DNA from: an uncultured bacterium
GTDB taxonomy: Bacteria > CG03 > CAZUQH01
DNA length: 39,294 nucleotides
Assembly (NCBI GenBank): GCA_964622465.1
Contig: CAZUQH010000006.1
Span: 1-39,294 of the forward strand
Reading direction: 5' to 3'
Each line of letters begins with the position of its first letter. The stretch's first letter is position 1. The notes under the pieces were generated by a model. The model was given only the letters and a program-made list of their open reading frames with translations, was not told where the DNA came from and did no database searches. Below, piece after piece: positions 3,313 through 29,747 of the stretch. Made by a program: the position numbers and the translations under genes.

Positions 3313-4275
3313 ATGACAGGTAAATGTCTCGTTACAGGTTGTGCTGGATTTATTGGTTCACATCTTTGCGAATCGCTACTGCGTGATAACTGTGTAATTA
3401 CGGGTATAGATTGTTTTACTGACTACTATTCGCAGGGAAGAAAAGAACAAAACCTGAAGAACTTTATAGGTAACAAAAGGTTTAAATTGCTCAAGCGAGA
3501 GATGTCAACTGATAAGTTAACTGATGCGGTACAGGATACAGATTACGTTTTTCATCTGGCTGCGCAGCCAGGCGTCCGCAATGGATGGGGTGATGATTTT
3601 GAGGTCTACGTGCAGCGTAACATAATCGCAACACACCGTCTCCTTAAAGCAATCAGGGAAGTAAATTCTAAGGTAAAAAAAGTCATTCTTGCATCTTCGA
3701 GTTCCATATACGGAGATAACCCCGTACCGATGAAAGAGGAACAGTTGCCAAAACCTGTTTCTCCGTACGGAATAACAAAAGTTGCATGTGAGAATCTCGG
3801 ACGTCTCTATTTCAAGCAATTCGGATTGCCGGTTGTTACTCTTCGATATTTTACTGTGTATGGCCCAAGACAGAGGCCGGATATGGCTTTCTACAAATTC
3901 ATAGACGGACTCTTAAATGGAGAGCCGATTGTTGTATATGGCGATGGGAGCCAGAAGAGAGATTTTACCTATATTGATGATGCGGTTGAATCAACTTTGA
4001 AAGCGGCGGAAAAAGGTATTCCCGGTGATATATACAATATTGGTGGCGGGACAGAGATAACCGTTCGTGACGCTGTGTCTTTACTGGAGGACATCGCTGG
4101 AAGGGAAGTCAGGATAGAATTTTGTCCTTCTCAACCGGGGGAGATGCATGAGACACTTGCCGATAACAAACGCGCCCGTGATATTCTTGGGTTTGTCCCT
4201 GGTACAGATTTACGCGCAGGGCTGAAGAAAGAATTAGAATGGTTCCTAAAAGAACAAGAAGAAGAACAAAAATAG
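3313..4275 (+). CDS. NAD-dependent epimerase/dehydratase (SDR family nucleotide-sugar enzyme)
   Basis: MTGKCLVTGCAGFIGSHL Rossmann motif and SPYGITK (YxxxK) catalytic motif. I moved the start from track position 3205 to ATG 3313, which lies just after the upstream stop. Confidence 0.8.
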   Translation: MTGKCLVTGCAGFIGSHLCESLLRDNCVITGIDCFTDYYSQGRKEQNLKNFIGNKRFKLLKREMSTDKLTDAVQDTDYVFHLAAQPGVRNGWGDDFEVYVQRNIIATHRLLKAIREVNSKVKKVILASSSSIYGDNPVPMKEEQLPKPVSPYGITKVACENLGRLYFKQFGLPVVTLRYFTVYGPRQRPDMAFYKFIDGLLNGEPIVVYGDGSQKRDFTYIDDAVESTLKAAEKGIPGDIYNIGGGTEITVRDAVSLLEDIAGREVRIEFCPSQPGEMHETLADNKRARDILGFVPGTDLRAGLKKELEWFLKEQEEEQK

Positions 4276-5450
4276 CACATGTAATAACGAAGCTGGAACT
4301 TGGCGGTGCACAACAGAATACGCTCTATACGCTTAATCATCTTGACCCAAAGCGTTACAGAGGGTATCTGTTTTCCGGCCGTGGGGGTATTCTGGATGAT
4401 GAGGCCTCCAGTGCAGTGGGATATGAAACCAGATTTATTCCATCGCTTGGACGCCGGATATCTCCATTTCATGACTTTATTACTCTGGCGCACATCTGGC
4501 TCTTGTGTATATTGATTAGACCTGATATTATTCACACCCATTCTTCAAAGGCGGGGATAATAGGACGGTGGGCTGCTTTCTTTGCAGGTGTGCCTGTCCT
4601 TATTCATACCTATCACGGATTTGGTTTTAACGATTTTCAGCCACTCCCTGTAAGATGCATCTTACAGTTTACCGAATGTCTCACGGCACCTATAACTACT
4701 GCCCTCGTAGCCGTGTCAAGCGAAAATATCCAGAAAGGGCTATTAGCGGGCATAGGGAAACGAGAACAATACCTTGTTATTCATAGCGGTATAAAGGTGA
4801 GTGACTTTGCAGCGGTTCCAGAGGACAAAATAGAAAACACAAGGAAACAGATTGGTATTAAGAAAGGTATTCCTGTTATAGGGATGGTCGGTTGTTTCAA
4901 ACCACAGAAGGCGCCACTGGATTTTGTTTATCTCGCGAAGAAAGTTTCAGACAAACGTACTGATGTGCAATTTGTATTGATTGGTGATGGTTTGTTACGT
5001 CCTCAAATAGAAAAAGAGATAGAACGCCTGAATCTGAAGGATAAGTTAATTCTTACGGGTTGGAGGCGTGATGTTTCCTCCTGTGTCGCGTTATTTGATA
5101 TTCTCGTTCTCACTTCTTTATGGGAAGGACTGCCACGTGTTTTTCCGGAGGCAATGGCTGCTGGCAAGCCAATTGTTGCTACCTGGGTTGATGGAGCGCG
5201 GGAAGCGGTGCTACATGGGATAAACGGGTATCTTGTAGCTCCGCACGATGTTGACAAAATGAGTGATTATGTGCTACGGTTACTGGACAATCCAGACGAA
5301 AGAGGGCGTTTTGGCGCCTATGGGAAGAGGCGCGTTTACCCCCAATACGATATAGATGAAATGACGCGTCAGCTGGATGAACTTTATACAACTGTCATTG
5401 CGAGGAAAGTGCGTAAGCACTTGACGAAGCAATCTCGTACCAGTGAATAA
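4239..5450 (+). CDS. Glycosyltransferase family 4 (GT-B, GT1 superfamily)
   Basis: KIAHVITKLELGGAQ N-terminus and the LTSLWEGLPRVFPEAMAAGKPIVAT (EX7E-type) C-terminal domain. The last ~19 codons and the stop lie inside a repeat element (see findings). Confidence 0.8.
   Translation: MVPKRTRRRTKIAHVITKLELGGAQQNTLYTLNHLDPKRYRGYLFSGRGGILDDEASSAVGYETRFIPSLGRRISPFHDFITLAHIWLLCILIRPDIIHTHSSKAGIIGRWAAFFAGVPVLIHTYHGFGFNDFQPLPVRCILQFTECLTAPITTALVAVSSENIQKGLLAGIGKREQYLVIHSGIKVSDFAAVPEDKIENTRKQIGIKKGIPVIGMVGCFKPQKAPLDFVYLAKKVSDKRTDVQFVLIGDGLLRPQIEKEIERLNLKDKLILTGWRRDVSSCVALFDILVLTSLWEGLPRVFPEAMAAGKPIVATWVDGAREAVLHGINGYLVAPHDVDKMSDYVLRLLDNPDERGRFGAYGKRRVYPQYDIDEMTRQLDELYTTVIARKVRKHLTKQSRTSE
5394..5434 (+). 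repeat. Hairpin repeat copy (+ orientation)
   Basis: GTCATTGCGAG-gaAAGTGCgtaaGCACTTga-CGAAGCAATC. The inner stem is 6 bp with a GTAA loop. The copy lies inside the 3' end of the GT4 CDS. Confidence 0.85.
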
Positions 5451-5730
5451 AATATATACTGTCTACATAATGGCGAATGAAAGAAATACAGTCCTGTATA
5501 CTGGTATAACCAGTAGCCTTCGTAAGAGAGTATTTGAACACAAGGAAAAGATAATAAAGGGTTTCACCAACAAGTACAATGTAAGCAAATTGGTGTATTA
5601 TGAGTTGTTTAGTGATGCCCTGACGGCGATTACCCGAGAAAAGCAAATTAAGGCGGGCTCACGGGATAAGAAACTTGTACTGGTAAATGGATTTAATCCA
5701 AGATGGCGGGATTTGTATGAAGAGTTATGA
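5443..5730 (+). CDS. GIY-YIG nuclease family protein (COG2827/UPF0213-like)
   Basis: 95 aa with KIYTVYIM...VLYTGIT...LRKRVFEH...REKQIK, matching the GIY-YIG core order (GIY, YIG, R, E). GTG start. The ORF is bracketed by inverted hairpin repeats. Confidence 0.8.
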   Translation: MNKIYTVYIMANERNTVLYTGITSSLRKRVFEHKEKIIKGFTNKYNVSKLVYYELFSDALTAITREKQIKAGSRDKKLVLVNGFNPRWRDLYEEL

Positions 5731-5762
5731 GATTGCTTCGCCCTTCGGGCTCGCAATGACAA
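5731..5762 (-). repeat. Hairpin repeat copy (- orientation)
   Basis: GATTGCTTCGCCCTTCGGGCTCGCAATGACAA. Outer stem ATTGC/GCAAT, inner stem GCCC/GGGC. 32/32 identical to the copy at 7057-7088. Confidence 0.9.
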
Positions 5763-7032: not shown

Positions 7033-7056
7033 GTGGATAGTTTTTGGCTGGTAAGG

Positions 7057-7088
7057 GATTGCTTCGCCCTTCGGGCTCGCAATGACAA
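7057..7088 (-). repeat. Hairpin repeat copy (- orientation)
   Basis: Identical 32-mer to 5731-5762. It is preceded by ctggtaagg, which resembles the tactggtacgg extension of other copies. It sits between the large- and small-subunit genes. Confidence 0.9.
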
Positions 7089-13595: not shown

Positions 13596-13724
13596 GTTGC
13601 CGTTGCGAGGTATCTTTTAGGAGACGGCGGGCAATTCCATTAGTGTTACGGGATTGCTTACGCAACCTACGCAACCTGAAGGTTGCGGCTACAGCTTGGC
13701 GGCTACCGCGGCTCGCAATAACAG
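13596..13724. repeat. Composite hairpin-repeat pair (degenerate + copy, spacer, expanded - copy)
   Basis: gccGTTGCGAG...GGGCAATtc (degenerate), then the spacer ccattagtgttacgg, then GATTGCTTA...CGCAACCtgaaGGTTGCG...GGCTCGCAATAAC. There are internal tandem duplications of acgcaacct and gcggctac. It fills the acpP-fabF gap. Confidence 0.7.
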
Positions 13725-14985: not shown

Positions 14986-15664
14986 TATCCTCGCTGCAGA
15001 AAAAACGCTCGGTTTAAATTTTCAGGACAAATCGTTACTTGCCCTCGCACTTACCCATCGTTCCTATGCCCTGGAGCAAGGCCTGCCTGCTGACTATAAC
15101 AACGAGCGTCTCGAATTCTTGGGCGATGGCGTACTTAATCTGGTTGCTGCAGTGTACTTGTATAAGAAGTATCCAGACAAACAGGAAGGTGAACTCTCTC
15201 AACTAAGGGGCGTTCTTATCAGTCGTGATGGTCTCTACCGCTGGGCCAGGAAAATAGGTATTGCCAAGTTTATATTACTTGGCGCAGGTGAAGAAAAGAG
15301 CGGTGGAAGGAAGAAAAAACGGGTGATTGCGAGCACAATAGAAGCAGTCGCTGGCGCAGTATTCCTGGACAAGGGCTACGAAGCATCGGCCAAATTTGCA
15401 CTTAGTTATTTTGATTCACTGACGCGGATTAGAATAACCGAGTACAAAAACCGGCTGCAGACCATAGTTCAACAGCGGTATCACGAACCGCCGAAGTATG
15501 AGGTGCTAAAGGTTTTTGGGCCGCCGCACAGGCAGAAATTCCGTGTTGCAGTAATTATTGATGGTAAAACAATAGCGCTCTCTACTGGCTGGAGTAAGAA
15601 AGAAGCAGAGATAGATGCTGCGAGGAAAGCGCTCAGAAAAATGACTGCAAAGCAGCCATCCTGA
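14975..15664 (+). CDS. rnc: Ribonuclease III
   Basis: NERLEFLGDGVL signature plus a C-terminal dsRBD (GPPHRQKF...GWSKKEAEIDAA). The last codons and stop lie in a repeat copy. Confidence 0.9.
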   Translation: MQNDILAAEKTLGLNFQDKSLLALALTHRSYALEQGLPADYNNERLEFLGDGVLNLVAAVYLYKKYPDKQEGELSQLRGVLISRDGLYRWARKIGIAKFILLGAGEEKSGGRKKKRVIASTIEAVAGAVFLDKGYEASAKFALSYFDSLTRIRITEYKNRLQTIVQQRYHEPPKYEVLKVFGPPHRQKFRVAVIIDGKTIALSTGWSKKEAEIDAARKALRKMTAKQPS

Positions 15665-26116: not shown

Positions 26117-26153
26117 CAACCGCTTAGTTCTAAAAAATATTTCCCTTCAGAAA

Positions 26154-27293
26154 TTATTTCTTGGTGGCTGGGTAACGCTGTCGCAGGATTTCGCAGGCGC
26201 AGGAAAACAGTTTTATTATTTCAGGAATATGAAAGGTGTAAAGAGCAAGTACGCCTGATTGTCGCCAGGAAAAATGCACATGACTGAACAGGTCTATAAG
26301 AAAGAACTTATGCGAAATATGCATATCTTTTGTAGCTTTTGCGAGGCGTATACTTTCAAAATACGGCGATAAACTGTCATTCCTGGAGTGTAAAATAATA
26401 AGATGGCTAGAGAAATGCTCGAGAAATCTATCGGTTGATTGCGATTCCAGAATCCTTCTTTGATATGGGGAAAGAAGGGTTAAAGTGCGCAAGTGATCTT
26501 TACAGGTTATTAAAGAAAGGAACTGACGCCCTTCACGGGAAAGGCATTTTTCCATATTGTTTATGTCAGCTGCAAAGTCTTTCTTTTTCTGCTGCGCGAT
26601 TTTAAGTAGTATTTCCTGGTCATGAGGATTTGTTACAAAGTCGGTATTCTTTTCCAGAAAAACCCATCTTCCATCCGCTGGTGATGGTAGAGTTTGGGCG
26701 TATGGATATTTTCCCGACAAATGGTGAAGCACAAGGGCGTACGAGTCGTAGTATCCGCCAAATGATATTACGAATTTGACTCTCGAACTGATTGATGGCC
26801 TGGTAGCAGCGATAATCGAAGCAGGGCCACTAAATGAAATTCCCATAATCCCTGCTGCACGTTCGTCAACGTCAGGACGGTTTACCAGCGTTTGGAATGC
26901 ACGTTCTACCTGGTCAGTGGTTTCCGGTCTTATTTTCATCTGTCGCGCAAAGGTGAAATCAGCGAGCATAGTCGTGAACCCGCTTGCAGCGAAAACCTTT
27001 GCCACGTGATTTAAGAAAGGGTTATCCATGCCATCTGGATTTGCTCCATGTACAAGCAATAGAGCGGGACGTGGTTTTAGAGATGGTATGTAATACAAAG
27101 TTCCACGGAGGTCGCTTTCTCCGTAAGGAATTTGAATGTTTTTTGATTTGATATGAGGAGAAAGAGGGAAAGATAGAAACATCAGGTGTGGTATTGCTAT
27201 AATGGCACGTCCTATCGTTTCCACCTGGCGCCGGAAAACCAGCGCAAGTACCACGATAATGAATAAAACAACGAACGCTCCCAAGCAAGACAT
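26154..27293 (-). CDS. Membrane-anchored alpha/beta-hydrolase-fold protein
   Basis: This is the only minus-strand CDS I call. It has an N-terminal TM segment (LGAFVVLFIIVVLALVF), LLVHGAN and a GISFSG (GxSxG) nucleophile elbow, with later HSRND and SHVH as candidate Asp/His. The substrate is unknown. Confidence 0.6.
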   Translation of the reverse strand: MSCLGAFVVLFIIVVLALVFRRQVETIGRAIIAIPHLMFLSFPLSPHIKSKNIQIPYGESDLRGTLYYIPSLKPRPALLLVHGANPDGMDNPFLNHVAKVFAASGFTTMLADFTFARQMKIRPETTDQVERAFQTLVNRPDVDERAAGIMGISFSGPASIIAATRPSISSRVKFVISFGGYYDSYALVLHHLSGKYPYAQTLPSPADGRWVFLEKNTDFVTNPHDQEILLKIAQQKKKDFAADINNMEKCLSREGRQFLSLITCKDHLRTLTLLSPYQRRILESQSTDRFLEHFSSHLIILHSRNDSLSPYFESIRLAKATKDMHISHKFFLIDLFSHVHFSWRQSGVLALYTFHIPEIIKLFSCACEILRQRYPATKK

Positions 27294-28668
27294 AGATGTA
27301 TTATATAGCAGAATTGCCAGGAAATGTCAACGGATTTTTGGTGGTATTTTAAGGGAGATAGAATACGCAAGACAGTTGACGGACTGTCCAGTATGGCTTG
27401 TCGGGGGTGCGGTACGAGATATTATATGTCATTGCGAGGTCAGCGTAGCTGACCGAAGCAATCTCATTACTGGTACGGGATTGTATACGCGGTCTCGCAA
27501 TGACAATGTTGATATTGACCTTGTTGTTTGTGGCGACTGGAGAAGATTTACAAGCGGACTTGCAAGAAAATTCGGAGCAAAACCAACTTTTTTTCCACAA
27601 TTTCTTGGAGGACATTTTACCATTCAGACAGAAAAAAATAAGTACGAAGTTAATATTACTCATACTCGCAGGGAATCGTATATCAAGCCTGGCTCACTTC
27701 CACGAGTAGCGCCAACGACGCTTGAAGAAGATTTGGGACGCCGCGATTTTGCTATGAATGCTATTGCTGTTTCACTCAATCCAGAAAACTATCTGCAAAT
27801 TATAGATGCTTATGATGGTATTGAGGACATTCTACATAAGCGCATACGGGTTCTAAAGAAGGACAGTTTCAGGGAAGACCCGACCAGAATTATAAGAGCT
27901 ATCCGCTATGAAGTGCGGCTCGGCTTCCGTATGACGCAGGACACTCTGACCCGGATGAAAAATGCGATTAATGCCGGTCATATTGCACATATACCGGGCG
28001 AGCGCTTTCGGGATGAACTTGTGCTCAATTTGAAAGAACGCACTGCTTATGAGGGCATTCTCCGTCTCTTCAAATATGGTGTTTTTAGTTCCGTATGGCC
28101 AGAATTGACTATGACCACTGCAAAAAAGCGTTATATTCAACGGATAATTACCGGATGGGAATCATTGCGTAAGCTGGATTTAGGTGTTCCTGTTGATAGA
28201 TGGTTATGCTTGTTGATTGCGATATGCTGGGGCGCTTCCCGTAATAGCACGGGAGAAAAATCGTTGCTTCTCAAAAGAGAAATCGCAAAACATCTGGGGT
28301 TGGATAAGCGGCAATCGCAGGCGCTTATCAACTCAGAAGTGCAAATCAGGAAAGCGCAAAGAATAATTTACAAAAGGGATACAAGTGCATCTGCAATTAC
28401 AACTGCACTTGATGGTTGCGGTGAATATGCACTTGCTATACTGTTTCTTGTTGTAACATCAAGACGCGCAAAAAACCAAGTTATGCGTTACGTTAACGAC
28501 TGGAAAAAGAGAAAGCCACTGCTTAACGGTAACGACTTAAAAAAGATGGGTTTGGAACCAGGACCCGGGTTTCAGAAAATCCTGACTGAGCTCCGACTGG
28601 CACAGATAGACGGTAAGATATCTAACCGTCGCCAGGCAAAACAATTTGTCCTGTCGTCTAATAGCTAA
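27259..28668 (+). CDS. CCA-adding enzyme / poly(A) polymerase family (class II tRNA nucleotidyltransferase) carrying an in-frame repeat insertion
   Basis: WLVGGAVRD ... DIDLVV, RRDFAMNAIA and EDPTRIIRAIRYEVRLGF. The start is uncertain: ATG 27259 and ATG 27202 both overlap the 5' end of the divergent hydrolase gene. Confidence 0.75.
   Translation: MNKTTNAPKQDIDVLYSRIARKCQRIFGGILREIEYARQLTDCPVWLVGGAVRDIICHCEVSVADRSNLITGTGLYTRSRNDNVDIDLVVCGDWRRFTSGLARKFGAKPTFFPQFLGGHFTIQTEKNKYEVNITHTRRESYIKPGSLPRVAPTTLEEDLGRRDFAMNAIAVSLNPENYLQIIDAYDGIEDILHKRIRVLKKDSFREDPTRIIRAIRYEVRLGFRMTQDTLTRMKNAINAGHIAHIPGERFRDELVLNLKERTAYEGILRLFKYGVFSSVWPELTMTTAKKRYIQRIITGWESLRKLDLGVPVDRWLCLLIAICWGASRNSTGEKSLLLKREIAKHLGLDKRQSQALINSEVQIRKAQRIIYKRDTSASAITTALDGCGEYALAILFLVVTSRRAKNQVMRYVNDWKKRKPLLNGNDLKKMGLEPGPGFQKILTELRLAQIDGKISNRRQAKQFVLSSNS
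27427..27505. repeat. Composite hairpin-repeat pair inside the CCA-enzyme CDS
   Basis: tGTCATTGCGAG-GTCAGCgtaGCTGAC-CGAAGCAATC, then the spacer tcattactggtacgg, then GATTGtatacgcggtCTCGCAATGACa. It is read through as 26 codons (CHCEVSVADRSNLITGTGLYTRSRND). Confidence 0.85.
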
Positions 28669-28688
28669 AATGCTATAACATACCACAG

Positions 28689-28716
28689 TTGATTTCCCGC
28701 ACAAAATTGATATAAT
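28689..28716 (+). promoter_or_regulatory. Extended -10 promoter candidate upstream of the two-gene nucleotidyltransferase module
   Basis: TTGATT (28689-28694), a 16-nt spacer ending in TGa, then TATAAT (28711-28716). A downstream inverted repeat, GACAAC (28734-28739) and GTTGTC (28772-28777), could be an operator. Confidence 0.45.
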
Positions 28717-28800
28717 ATACTTGCAGTTTACCAGACAACGCCGTAACTCCCCCTCGCTTTAGCGATAGAGAGTTGTCAAGGTATCACTCACAAAAAAGGC

Positions 28801-29154
28801 ATGGGGCTGGTGATGGGAAACGCAGCAGTAATTGACCATGCAGATGATATTATGAAAAAATTACCTGGTTTTTTAAAAAAATATTTTTGGGATGTAGAGT
28901 TTGAAAAATTAGATGCGGAAGCGTATTCCCGGGACATATTGGCGAGATTGCTTGAGCATGGTGATAAAAAGGCGATTAGTTGGATGAAGAGAAATTTTAC
29001 CAAAGATCAGATTGAAGATGTTTTATTTCATTATCGCAGCGTTTCACCGCAGAGCGCAAATTTTTGGGCGTTAATTTTTGATATCGATAAAAAGGAAATT
29101 TTGTGTTTACAAAAACCTTATTTGGAGATGCGAAGAAGGCATTGGCCGTATTAG
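28801..29154 (+). CDS. Small conserved hypothetical protein, putative partner (antitoxin-like) of the downstream nucleotidyltransferase
   Basis: The FWDVEFEKLD...ILARLLEHGDKKAISWMKRNF...SPQSANFWALIF pattern is one I recognise from small ORFs that precede AbiEii-like genes. I cannot confirm the family name. The start is ambiguous (28801, 28813 or 28852). It overlaps the next gene by 52 nt. Confidence 0.5.
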   Translation: MGLVMGNAAVIDHADDIMKKLPGFLKKYFWDVEFEKLDAEAYSRDILARLLEHGDKKAISWMKRNFTKDQIEDVLFHYRSVSPQSANFWALIFDIDKKEILCLQKPYLEMRRRHWPY

Positions 29155-29747
29155 GCAAATCGCATCTGCTGGATAACACCTATTTGGCAGGCGGTACAGC
29201 CTGCGCCTTACAAATAGGGCACAGGATTTCTGTAGATTTAGATTTCTTCACCCCAAAGGAATTTGATGCTAAAGAGCTGAGCCGCTCTTTGAAAAAAGTC
29301 GGTAAGTTTAAAGCAGAGAAACAAAGTTGGGGAACTATCTTAGGTACTTTAGAAGGGATAAAGTTTAGCATCTTTGTTTACAAATATCCTGTTTTATTCC
29401 CTTTTAAATCCATATTCGATATGAATATTCTTGATTTACGAGATATTGCGGCCATGAAAATAGACGCTATCAGCACAAGGGGCATTAGGAGAGATTTTAT
29501 AGATCTTTATTTTATATGCCAAAAGGGGATATCCTTAAGTGAAATATTGTCGTTTTATGACCGTAAATACGGCACTTTAGCTTCCAACGTTATTCATATC
29601 CAAAAGAGTTTAGTTTATTTTATGGATGCTGAAGCAACTGCGATGCCCAGGATGTTAAAAAAAGCAACATGGGAAGATGTAAAGAAATATTTCGAAAACG
29701 AAGTAAAGAAACTGGTAGAAGACACTAATGTGATAATAACAAAATGA
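29103..29747 (+). CDS. Nucleotidyltransferase AbiEii/AbiGii-toxin-like family protein (short form)
   Basis: GTG start. LAGGTACALQIGHRISVDLDFF is a minimal-NTase G-x-DxD motif as in the DUF1814/AbiEii family. DIAAMKIDAISTRGIRRDFIDLYF follows. ATGA overlap with the downstream M50 protease gene. Confidence 0.55.
   Translation: MFTKTLFGDAKKALAVLGKSHLLDNTYLAGGTACALQIGHRISVDLDFFTPKEFDAKELSRSLKKVGKFKAEKQSWGTILGTLEGIKFSIFVYKYPVLFPFKSIFDMNILDLRDIAAMKIDAISTRGIRRDFIDLYFICQKGISLSEILSFYDRKYGTLASNVIHIQKSLVYFMDAEATAMPRMLKKATWEDVKKYFENEVKKLVEDTNVIITK

Follow-up and report, generated by a model that had tools for sequence, protein, structure and literature searches.

In-frame hairpin repeats of probable Ssn-associated class in a class II tRNA nucleotidyltransferase gene of an uncultured bacterium

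The Ssn proteins are single-domain GIY-YIG nucleases (CDD cd10448) that bind a hairpin repeat in single-stranded DNA (ssDNA) and cut beside it, with no activity towards dsDNA or RNA (Chenal et al., Nat Commun 2025, PMC11893778). The repeat is called NTS in Neisseria (CGTCATTCCCGCGMAVGCGGGAATCYRG), and its general name is Ssn-related motif (SRM). The ssnA gene is flanked by repeats in a layout resembling an insertion sequence, NTS–ssnA–NTS, which the authors compared with REP/RAYT, and in N. meningitidis the system lowers the integration of transforming DNA that bears NTS (PMC11893778). The NTS is rarely genic (2% in N. meningitidis 8013), and Rickettsia is among the SRM-rich genera (PMC11893778). 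A term search of the main text of PMC11893778 returned no mention of in-frame or intragenic insertions. Another type of repeat, the Rickettsia palindromic elements (RPEs), consists of selfish palindromes that lie in frame in unrelated housekeeping genes and are translated into extra segments, considered compatible with the fold and the function of the protein (review PMC10969869). Here, we describe a hairpin insert in a class II tRNA nucleotidyltransferase gene on a contig of 39,294 nt from an uncultured bacterium (GTDB lineage Bacteria; CG03; CAZUQH01), referred to below as the window (GenBank assembly GCA_964622465.1, contig CAZUQH010000006.1). The insert is likely a non-autonomous doublet of NTS/SRM-class hairpins, which would have spread with an Ssn-type GIY-YIG nuclease and would be translated and tolerated in an active enzyme. 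Both Rickettsia-like in-frame repeats and Ssn hairpins are known; new here are in-frame hairpins of the Ssn-associated class inside an enzyme gene.

The insert and its host enzyme

The gene and the parts of the insert are as follows.

27202..28668, + strand: class II tRNA nucleotidyltransferase gene, CCA- or A-adding (Pfam, phmmer, Foldseek)
27427..27505, + strand: in-frame hairpin doublet, two inverted SRM-type units with a spacer, encoding CHCEVSVADRSNLITGTGLYTRSRND (inverted repeat, fold, frame)
27427..27465, + strand: hairpin unit A, consisting of TGTCATTGCGAG, the palindromic middle GTCAGCgtaGCTGAC and then CGAAGCAATCTC (sequence)
27466..27476, + strand: spacer ATTACTGGTAC, 11 nt (alignment)
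27477..27505, - strand: hairpin unit C, shortened and degenerate, GGGATT...GTATACGCGGTCTCGCAATGACA (sequence)

The coding sequence translates as ...WLVGGAVRDII-CHCEVSVADRSNLITGTGLYTRSRND-NVDIDLVV.... In the database, the gene is called from the ATG at 27259, for a protein of 469 aa (P0001). The first-pass annotation of the window had reported an inverted repeat pair in frame at 27427-27505. The sequence was as described, and the end given was correct to within one base. The 26 codons of the insert occupy 27427-27504, with codon position 1 at 27427, and the perfect 12-nt inverted repeat TGTCATTGCGAG/CTCGCAATGACA at 27427-27438 and 27494-27505 bounds the two hairpin units. The insertion site lies between GGAVRD (helix A) and the catalytic DID of the class II enzyme. 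Unit A has the architecture of the units that flank GIY-YIG genes in other phyla, and unit C carries a 9-nt deletion relative to the homologous unit of two close orthologs, L003 and L004. The 93-nt region folds much more stably than shuffled sequence, with -19.7 kcal/mol for DNA (z = -4.5) and -34.8 kcal/mol for RNA (z = -3.8). At its outer ends, the repeat codes for CH and ND, and joining the two sides (IVCH+NDNV) yields eight residues; however, TGTCAT/ATGACA is repeat sequence in every other copy. Four native linker codons may have been lost, in line with the proposal of the first-pass annotation that the element replaced part of the linker. A comparison with Rfam, performed for the whole window at gathering thresholds and for both repeat regions at permissive E-values, revealed no meaningful family. 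Literature searches with the DNA of the repeats and with the peptides that it encodes returned nothing relevant.

The enzyme was assigned to the class II tRNA nucleotidyltransferases by Pfam (PolyA_pol, E 2.5e-16; PolyA_pol_RNAbd, E 9e-08) and by fold. The closest solved structure by sequence was that of the A-adding enzyme of Aquifex aeolicus (1vfg, top phmmer match, E 2e-37), which could be aligned only from the residue preceding DxD onward. In the Foldseek search of the model, the CCA-adding enzyme of T. maritima (3H38), which was the top fold match, and the A-adding enzyme of A. aeolicus (4WBY) had target-normalised TM of ~0.8. The top NCBIfam match was an A-adding model, with a score far under its cut-off. 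Thus, of the earlier label, a CCA-adding enzyme, the class II assignment holds; CCA specificity is not established, and the best sequence matches are A-adding. The motifs GGxVRD...DxD and RRD and those downstream are present, and the invariant D85, D87, R161-R162-D163 and others are retained. The structures of this class (1VFG/4WBY from A. aeolicus, A-adding; 3H37 from T. maritima, CCA-adding) have the same fold and the same catalytic motifs, and differ in the linker from helix A to DxD, which has 8 residues there and 30 here.

The linker length was compared with 116 distant homologs (~30% identity) from Nitrospirota, Actinomycetota and others. As the first-pass annotation had estimated (about 8 residues normally, 30 here), the spacing from RD to DxD, determined by regular expression, was exactly 8 residues in 112 of the homologs and 30 in the window protein. 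Three of the remaining four read as 8 on inspection, and one was 10. The linker consensus was GGVVRDLLLKRENWDLDL, and the distant homologs carry no insert in it, homologous or otherwise; the insert is therefore the derived state. An AlphaFold2 model of P0001 was built with 118 homologs and had a mean pLDDT of 90.3 and a pTM of 0.86. The confidence was low only at the first five residues and at residues 63-81, which lie within the insert (pLDDT < 50 for 63-81). In the model, helix A continues into the first insert residues, and the DIDLVV strand follows at 85-90. The insert-encoded peptide is thus predicted to form a low-confidence, disordered loop that leaves the core fold intact.

Variable arrays at one site in close orthologs

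Only three close relatives of the enzyme were found in the protein database, with 75-79% identity, and the next matches fall to 32%. Their DNA (L001/L002, L003 and L004) has the same neighbouring genes as the window. In all four known close orthologs, the window included, exactly this site is occupied by repeats of one family.

L001/L002: 1 unit, 48 nt between DI and DID, 17-aa linker
Window: 2 units, 87 nt between DI and DID, 30-aa linker
L003: 3 units, 147 nt between DI and DID, 50-aa linker
L004: 4 units, 180 nt between DI and DID, 61-aa linker

The first-pass annotation had read the locus as a single element insertion. An element is indeed at the site, which is a variable array of 1-4 units and not one fixed insertion. 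All four insert lengths are multiples of 3. In every variant, the frame of the enzyme is the sole stop-free + frame, and both other + frames contain stops. Individual units are translated in differing frames in different copies and so give different peptides. In L004, one unit stands in the frame where the consensus CAATGAC would yield TGA, and it has CAACGAC instead.

Outside the insert, the pairwise ratio of non-synonymous to synonymous substitution rates (dN/dS) among the four orthologs was 0.21-0.27 at dS 0.34-0.68. On this evidence, the gene as a whole is under purifying selection. The in-frame, stop-free arrays, the low dN/dS and the retained catalytic residues argue that the gene is functional in the four lineages and that the repeats are translated as part of the enzyme. 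The earlier annotation had left two outcomes, a tolerated insert or a dead copy. The open frames in four orthologs, the dN/dS values and the confident AlphaFold core favour tolerance. If the insert had instead killed the enzyme, the gene would be decaying as a pseudogene, and CCA, CC or A would be added by another enzyme encoded elsewhere in the genome. The insert does lie four residues ahead of the catalytic DxD, in a linker of 8 aa in nearly all homologs, and the best family matches are A-adding enzymes, which elsewhere act beside a second CC-adding gene. No second class II nucleotidyltransferase was found in the 39-kb window, the only part of the genome that this search covered. However, in four lineages diverged to this extent the frame stays open over its full length despite different inserts, no invariant catalytic residue has been lost, the low dN/dS does not fit decay, and L004 carries a stop-avoiding substitution. 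We regard a pseudogene as improbable.

The very stable RNA hairpin (-34.8 kcal/mol) and the Cys that is the first codon of the segment could also suggest that it is removed before the protein is mature: excised from the RNA, skipped by ribosomes that bypass the hairpin, or spliced out of the protein. In that case, the frame and the stops would drift freely, yet each of the four variants has a length divisible by 3 and is open in the frame of the gene alone. Moreover, 26 aa is far too short for an intein and 78 nt is far too short for a group I/II intron, no Rfam family matched, and there is neither a stop codon nor the matched take-off and landing codons found in phage T4 gene 60. Removal of the segment is thus highly improbable.

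The similarity among the ortholog contigs was mosaic. Upstream of the gene, L001 is nearest to L003 (0.94), and inside the gene it is nearest to L004 (0.93), while the window is nearest to L003 inside the gene (0.90; comparison with window positions 26150-28770). The hairpin middle of unit A groups the window with L001, and L003 with L004, contrary to the downstream gene similarity. Because of this mosaic pattern, the sequences suggest a recombination breakpoint near the gene start or the hairpin array. Such nearby recombination would fit a co-opted array, serving either as a lineage-specific functional loop or as an Ssn-addressable ssDNA cleavage site that protects or regulates an essential gene. 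The array persists at one site in all four known orthologs despite their substantial divergence, and NTS repeats modulate transformation in N. meningitidis (PMC11893778). Against this, the peptide is unconserved in sequence and in length (17, 30, 50 and 61 residues, in differing frames), which speaks against a specific function in the protein; in addition, the loop is predicted to be disordered, and persistence is equally expected if precise excision is rare. Co-option is therefore unlikely. The same low credence is given to a more specific proposal, in which the array would be a selected Ssn-addressable cleavage or recombination site in an essential gene, shielding the resident allele or driving local recombination, and the length-variable loops may tune tRNA 3'-end synthesis.

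The JGI gene calls of L003 (3001-4356) and L004 (3001-4341) begin inside or just before the array and omit GGxVRD; an ATG lies 150-165 nt before the JGI start, and the frame is open from there. Hairpin repeats thus mislead gene callers, as two ortholog models were started inside the array.

The GIY-YIG element and its hairpins

The other copies of the repeat in the window include an element that carries a nuclease gene.

5393..5761, + strand: hairpin–GIY-YIG–hairpin element with the NTS–ssnA–NTS architecture (inverted repeats)
5393-5436 and 5729-5761: left unit and right, inverted unit of the GIY-YIG element
5443..5730, + strand: single-domain GIY-YIG nuclease gene, 95 aa, Ssn-family homolog (Pfam GIY-YIG, E 9.4e-15)
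7055..7087, - strand: solo hairpin unit between leuC-like and leuD-like genes, nearly the same as the right unit at 5729-5761
13598..13723, + strand: degenerate hairpin doublet between acpP and fabF, with the + unit, spacer, - unit layout of the enzyme insert

The exact 12-mer TGTCATTGCGAG occurs five times in the 39 kb. At up to 2 mismatches, the only level at which dinucleotide shuffles were made for the 12-mer, there were 11 matches against a mean of 3.46 in the shuffles, and 1 of 100 shuffles reached this number. For an 11-mer at up to 1 mismatch, 7 matches were found where 0.77 were expected, and none of 100 shuffles reached 7. A 1-mismatch repeat match at 15323 lies inside the RNase III coding sequence and was judged by eye as chance. 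The 12-nt ends of the enzyme insert also bound the intergenic copies and the copy that carries the GIY-YIG gene, 22 kb away in the same window. The insert is therefore derived from a repeat-family element, as had been proposed. The same evidence bears on the notion that a native lineage-specific loop resembles the repeats by chance or that the segment is an assembly chimera. As a general possibility, metagenome assemblies can collapse repeats. Nevertheless, four other copies in the window have the same 12-nt ends, units from other phyla are built alike internally, and related arrays stand at the same site in three further independent assemblies. Since the identical protein was recorded on 13 contigs from independent sources (NCBI, JGI, ENA and Logan), the insert is not an assembly artefact, a concern that the first-pass annotation had raised. 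We see practically no chance for this explanation.

In reverse complement, the insert reads unit–GTACCAGTAAT–unit, and GTACCAGTAAT is nearly the same as GTACCAGTGAAT, with which the GIY-YIG element continues after its left hairpin (12 nt). The spacer of the acpP–fabF doublet, GTAACACTAAT, is related to the insert spacer by alignment. Because of this resemblance of the spacers, the doublets look like internally deleted derivatives of the GIY-YIG element, similar to MITEs (miniature transposable elements with inverted repeats) or REPINs. The GIY-YIG protein itself matched no solved structure by sequence and no NCBIfam family. The glycosyltransferase-like open reading frame (ORF) at 4239-5450 (+) extends into the left hairpin (5393-5436), and its last 18 residues (VIARKVRKHLTKQSRTSE) and stop are encoded by the repeat. 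It is a second case of a translated repeat, since the C-terminal end of the ORF is repeat-encoded.

The window nuclease is 49% identical over 84 aa (pairwise E 2e-30) to a single match in N. gonorrhoeae, which is flanked by canonical NTS. This match came from two complete 2.17-Mb chromosomes listed as plasmids in PLSDB, and we infer that the NTS-flanked ORF is the ssnA ortholog. At this locus (NZ_CP119142.1, 1881116-1882576), the Ssn homolog is unannotated. The listed ORF has only 71 aa from a TTG start, and the homologous stretch begins farther upstream; a disrupted start is possible. The orientation of the hairpins around the gene is opposite to that in the window. The window units are 30-45-nt imperfect palindromes with oriented conserved flanks, GTCATT ... 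AATC, which are common to the NTS (CGTCATTCCCGCG...GCGGGAATC) and the window units (TGTCATTGCGAG...GAAGCAATC). They have the hairpin form used to define NTS/SRM, a 20-50-nt imperfect palindrome with orienting non-palindromic flanks, here TGTCATTGCGAG-[self-complementary middle]-CGAAGCAATCTC. As with NTS/SRM, there are many copies, mostly intergenic, inverted copies bracket a GIY-YIG gene of ~95 aa, and the system is spread over many phyla. Because of the identity to the NTS-flanked N. gonorrhoeae ORF and the shared flanks, we assign, by sequence, the window nuclease to the Ssn family and the repeats to the SRM class. The window units differ from the NTS in the stem, which is ATTGCGAG/..GCAAT in the window and ATTCCCGCG/..GGGAAT in the NTS.

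The GIY-YIG protein was scanned against 185,579 species genomes. More than 521 relatives were found, and 80 loci with 54-71% identity were kept, from Proteobacteria, Cyanobacteria, Nitrospirota, Brocadia, Omnitrophota, Patescibacteria, Chloroflexota, Firmicutes and others. Homologs in this identity range occur in a metagenome-assembled genome (MAG) of Rickettsiaceae (L071), in Brocadia (L017/L018) and in Nostoc (L007). Full units of the form GTCATTGCGAG...GCAATC were present in 61 of the 80 loci, 214 in total, usually with one unit upstream of the gene and one inverted unit downstream, and arrays were frequent. The middles between the conserved flanks differ in sequence and are self-complementary (mean fold z-score of -2.1 for the 104 distinct middles with 9 nt or more). 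Divergent yet self-complementary middles are the pattern expected from selection for a hairpin. The published SRM string gave 6 matches in 5 of the 80 loci, compared with the 214 ATTGCGAG-type units, and the canonical NTS used as a control was matched. Since this string also misses the window units, the SRM class as operationally defined in print does not include the ATTGCGAG-type hairpins, which form a variant class.

Long regular arrays of alternating hairpin units were seen at some GIY-YIG loci of other phyla, L053 (~828-2147), L014, L031 and L051. In an alphaproteobacterial MAG, the array has a 111-nt period, and arrays of this type give rise to long spurious ORFs on either strand. When the long ORFs of the 80 loci were screened for hairpin units, most of those returned were spurious ORFs that span repeat arrays in GC-rich genomes.

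Upstream of the tRNA nucleotidyltransferase gene, all four ortholog contigs have conserved a 379-aa ORF without a Pfam match (26154-27293, -), which overlaps the gene start head to head with its 5' end, by 35-92 nt. Directly downstream of the gene are a DUF6922 ORF (28801-29154, +) and an ORF for an AbiEii-type nucleotidyltransferase toxin (29103-29747, +), which resemble a type IV toxin-antitoxin pair. They are absent from this place in L001/L002, which have response-regulator genes instead. For the TrpRS encoded in the window, a single match reached 92% identity, and the others, at ~60%, came from MAGs of Elusimicrobiota and Omnitrophota.

Comparison with related repeats and significance

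The first-pass annotation had likened the insert to RPEs. The likeness holds for a palindromic repeat that lies in frame in a protein gene and, judging from its open frame, is translated; by family, the repeats belong with the NTS/SRM hairpins of the Ssn nucleases and not with the RPEs. Compared by description, RPEs are ~150 bp long, specific to Rickettsia and each encode a conserved peptide, whereas the window units have 29-39 nt and the doublet has 79 nt. In addition, units of the window family are read in differing frames, form a variable 1-4-unit array and have an identified partner nuclease gene. The Rickettsiaceae GIY-YIG homolog and the SRM-rich Rickettsia raise the question of whether some RPEs are related to Ssn-associated hairpins.

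The REP/BIME/REPIN–RAYT systems are similar in that their hairpin repeats are short and frequently form inverted doublets or mosaic clusters. REPIN-like doublets occur here at 27427-27505 and 13598-13723, and the arrays of L003 and L004 have 3-4 units. As in REP–RAYT, a single enzyme gene is bracketed by inverted repeats, and the hairpin is probably recognised as ssDNA. In contrast, the partner here is a GIY-YIG nuclease and not an HUH/Y1 transposase (IS200/IS605-like). The window units are without a GTAG or CGTC tetranucleotide tag, and REPs are extragenic by definition.

In the explanation that we prefer, a doublet or array of Ssn-associated hairpins tolerated by the enzyme, a single insertion into the linker between helix A and strand 2 would have occurred in the common ancestor of the four lineages. 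Units would afterwards have been gained, lost, deleted and probably recombined, and selection on the essential gene would have let only in-frame, stop-free versions survive. The spread of the repeats may have been assisted by the GIY-YIG (Ssn) nuclease via a single-strand hairpin mechanism; the published family has an IS200/REP-RAYT-like layout. The enzyme is presumably still active. Several observations weigh against this explanation. No ortholog with an empty site was found in the protein database, in a metagenome contig scan with the enzyme, which returned only distant relatives of at most 42% identity, or in a cluster look-up, which added only length variants of known alleles. That an insertion took place, where it was originally bounded and whether native linker residues were lost therefore had to be inferred. 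Transposition of Ssn-associated repeats is undemonstrated and was raised as a hypothesis only (PMC11893778), and the published SRM string, HGTCWYN(0-2)YYVSBRHN(0-5)WNVSBRGN(0-2)RNCYNB, matched 0 of the window units. The linker is otherwise nearly invariant at 8 residues, and a loop of 17-61 residues four residues ahead of the catalytic Asp could plausibly impair catalysis. Because the core confidence of the model stems largely from insert-free homologs, it shows fold compatibility rather than activity, and is not proof that the insert is harmless.

The locus would extend the translation of selfish palindromes within housekeeping proteins, in the style of Rickettsia, to another, pan-bacterial repeat family; the partner of that family, the GIY-YIG ssDNA nuclease Ssn, was not characterised until 2025. 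It indicates that hairpins of Ssn type can reside inside essential genes, where they also disturb gene calling. The spread of the system is probably underestimated, because the published search string misses ATTGCGAG-type hairpins across phyla. The four natural alleles, with linkers of 17, 30, 50 and 61 residues as compared with 8, constitute a natural experiment on the tolerance of insertions near the metal-binding aspartates of a polymerase-beta-type core.

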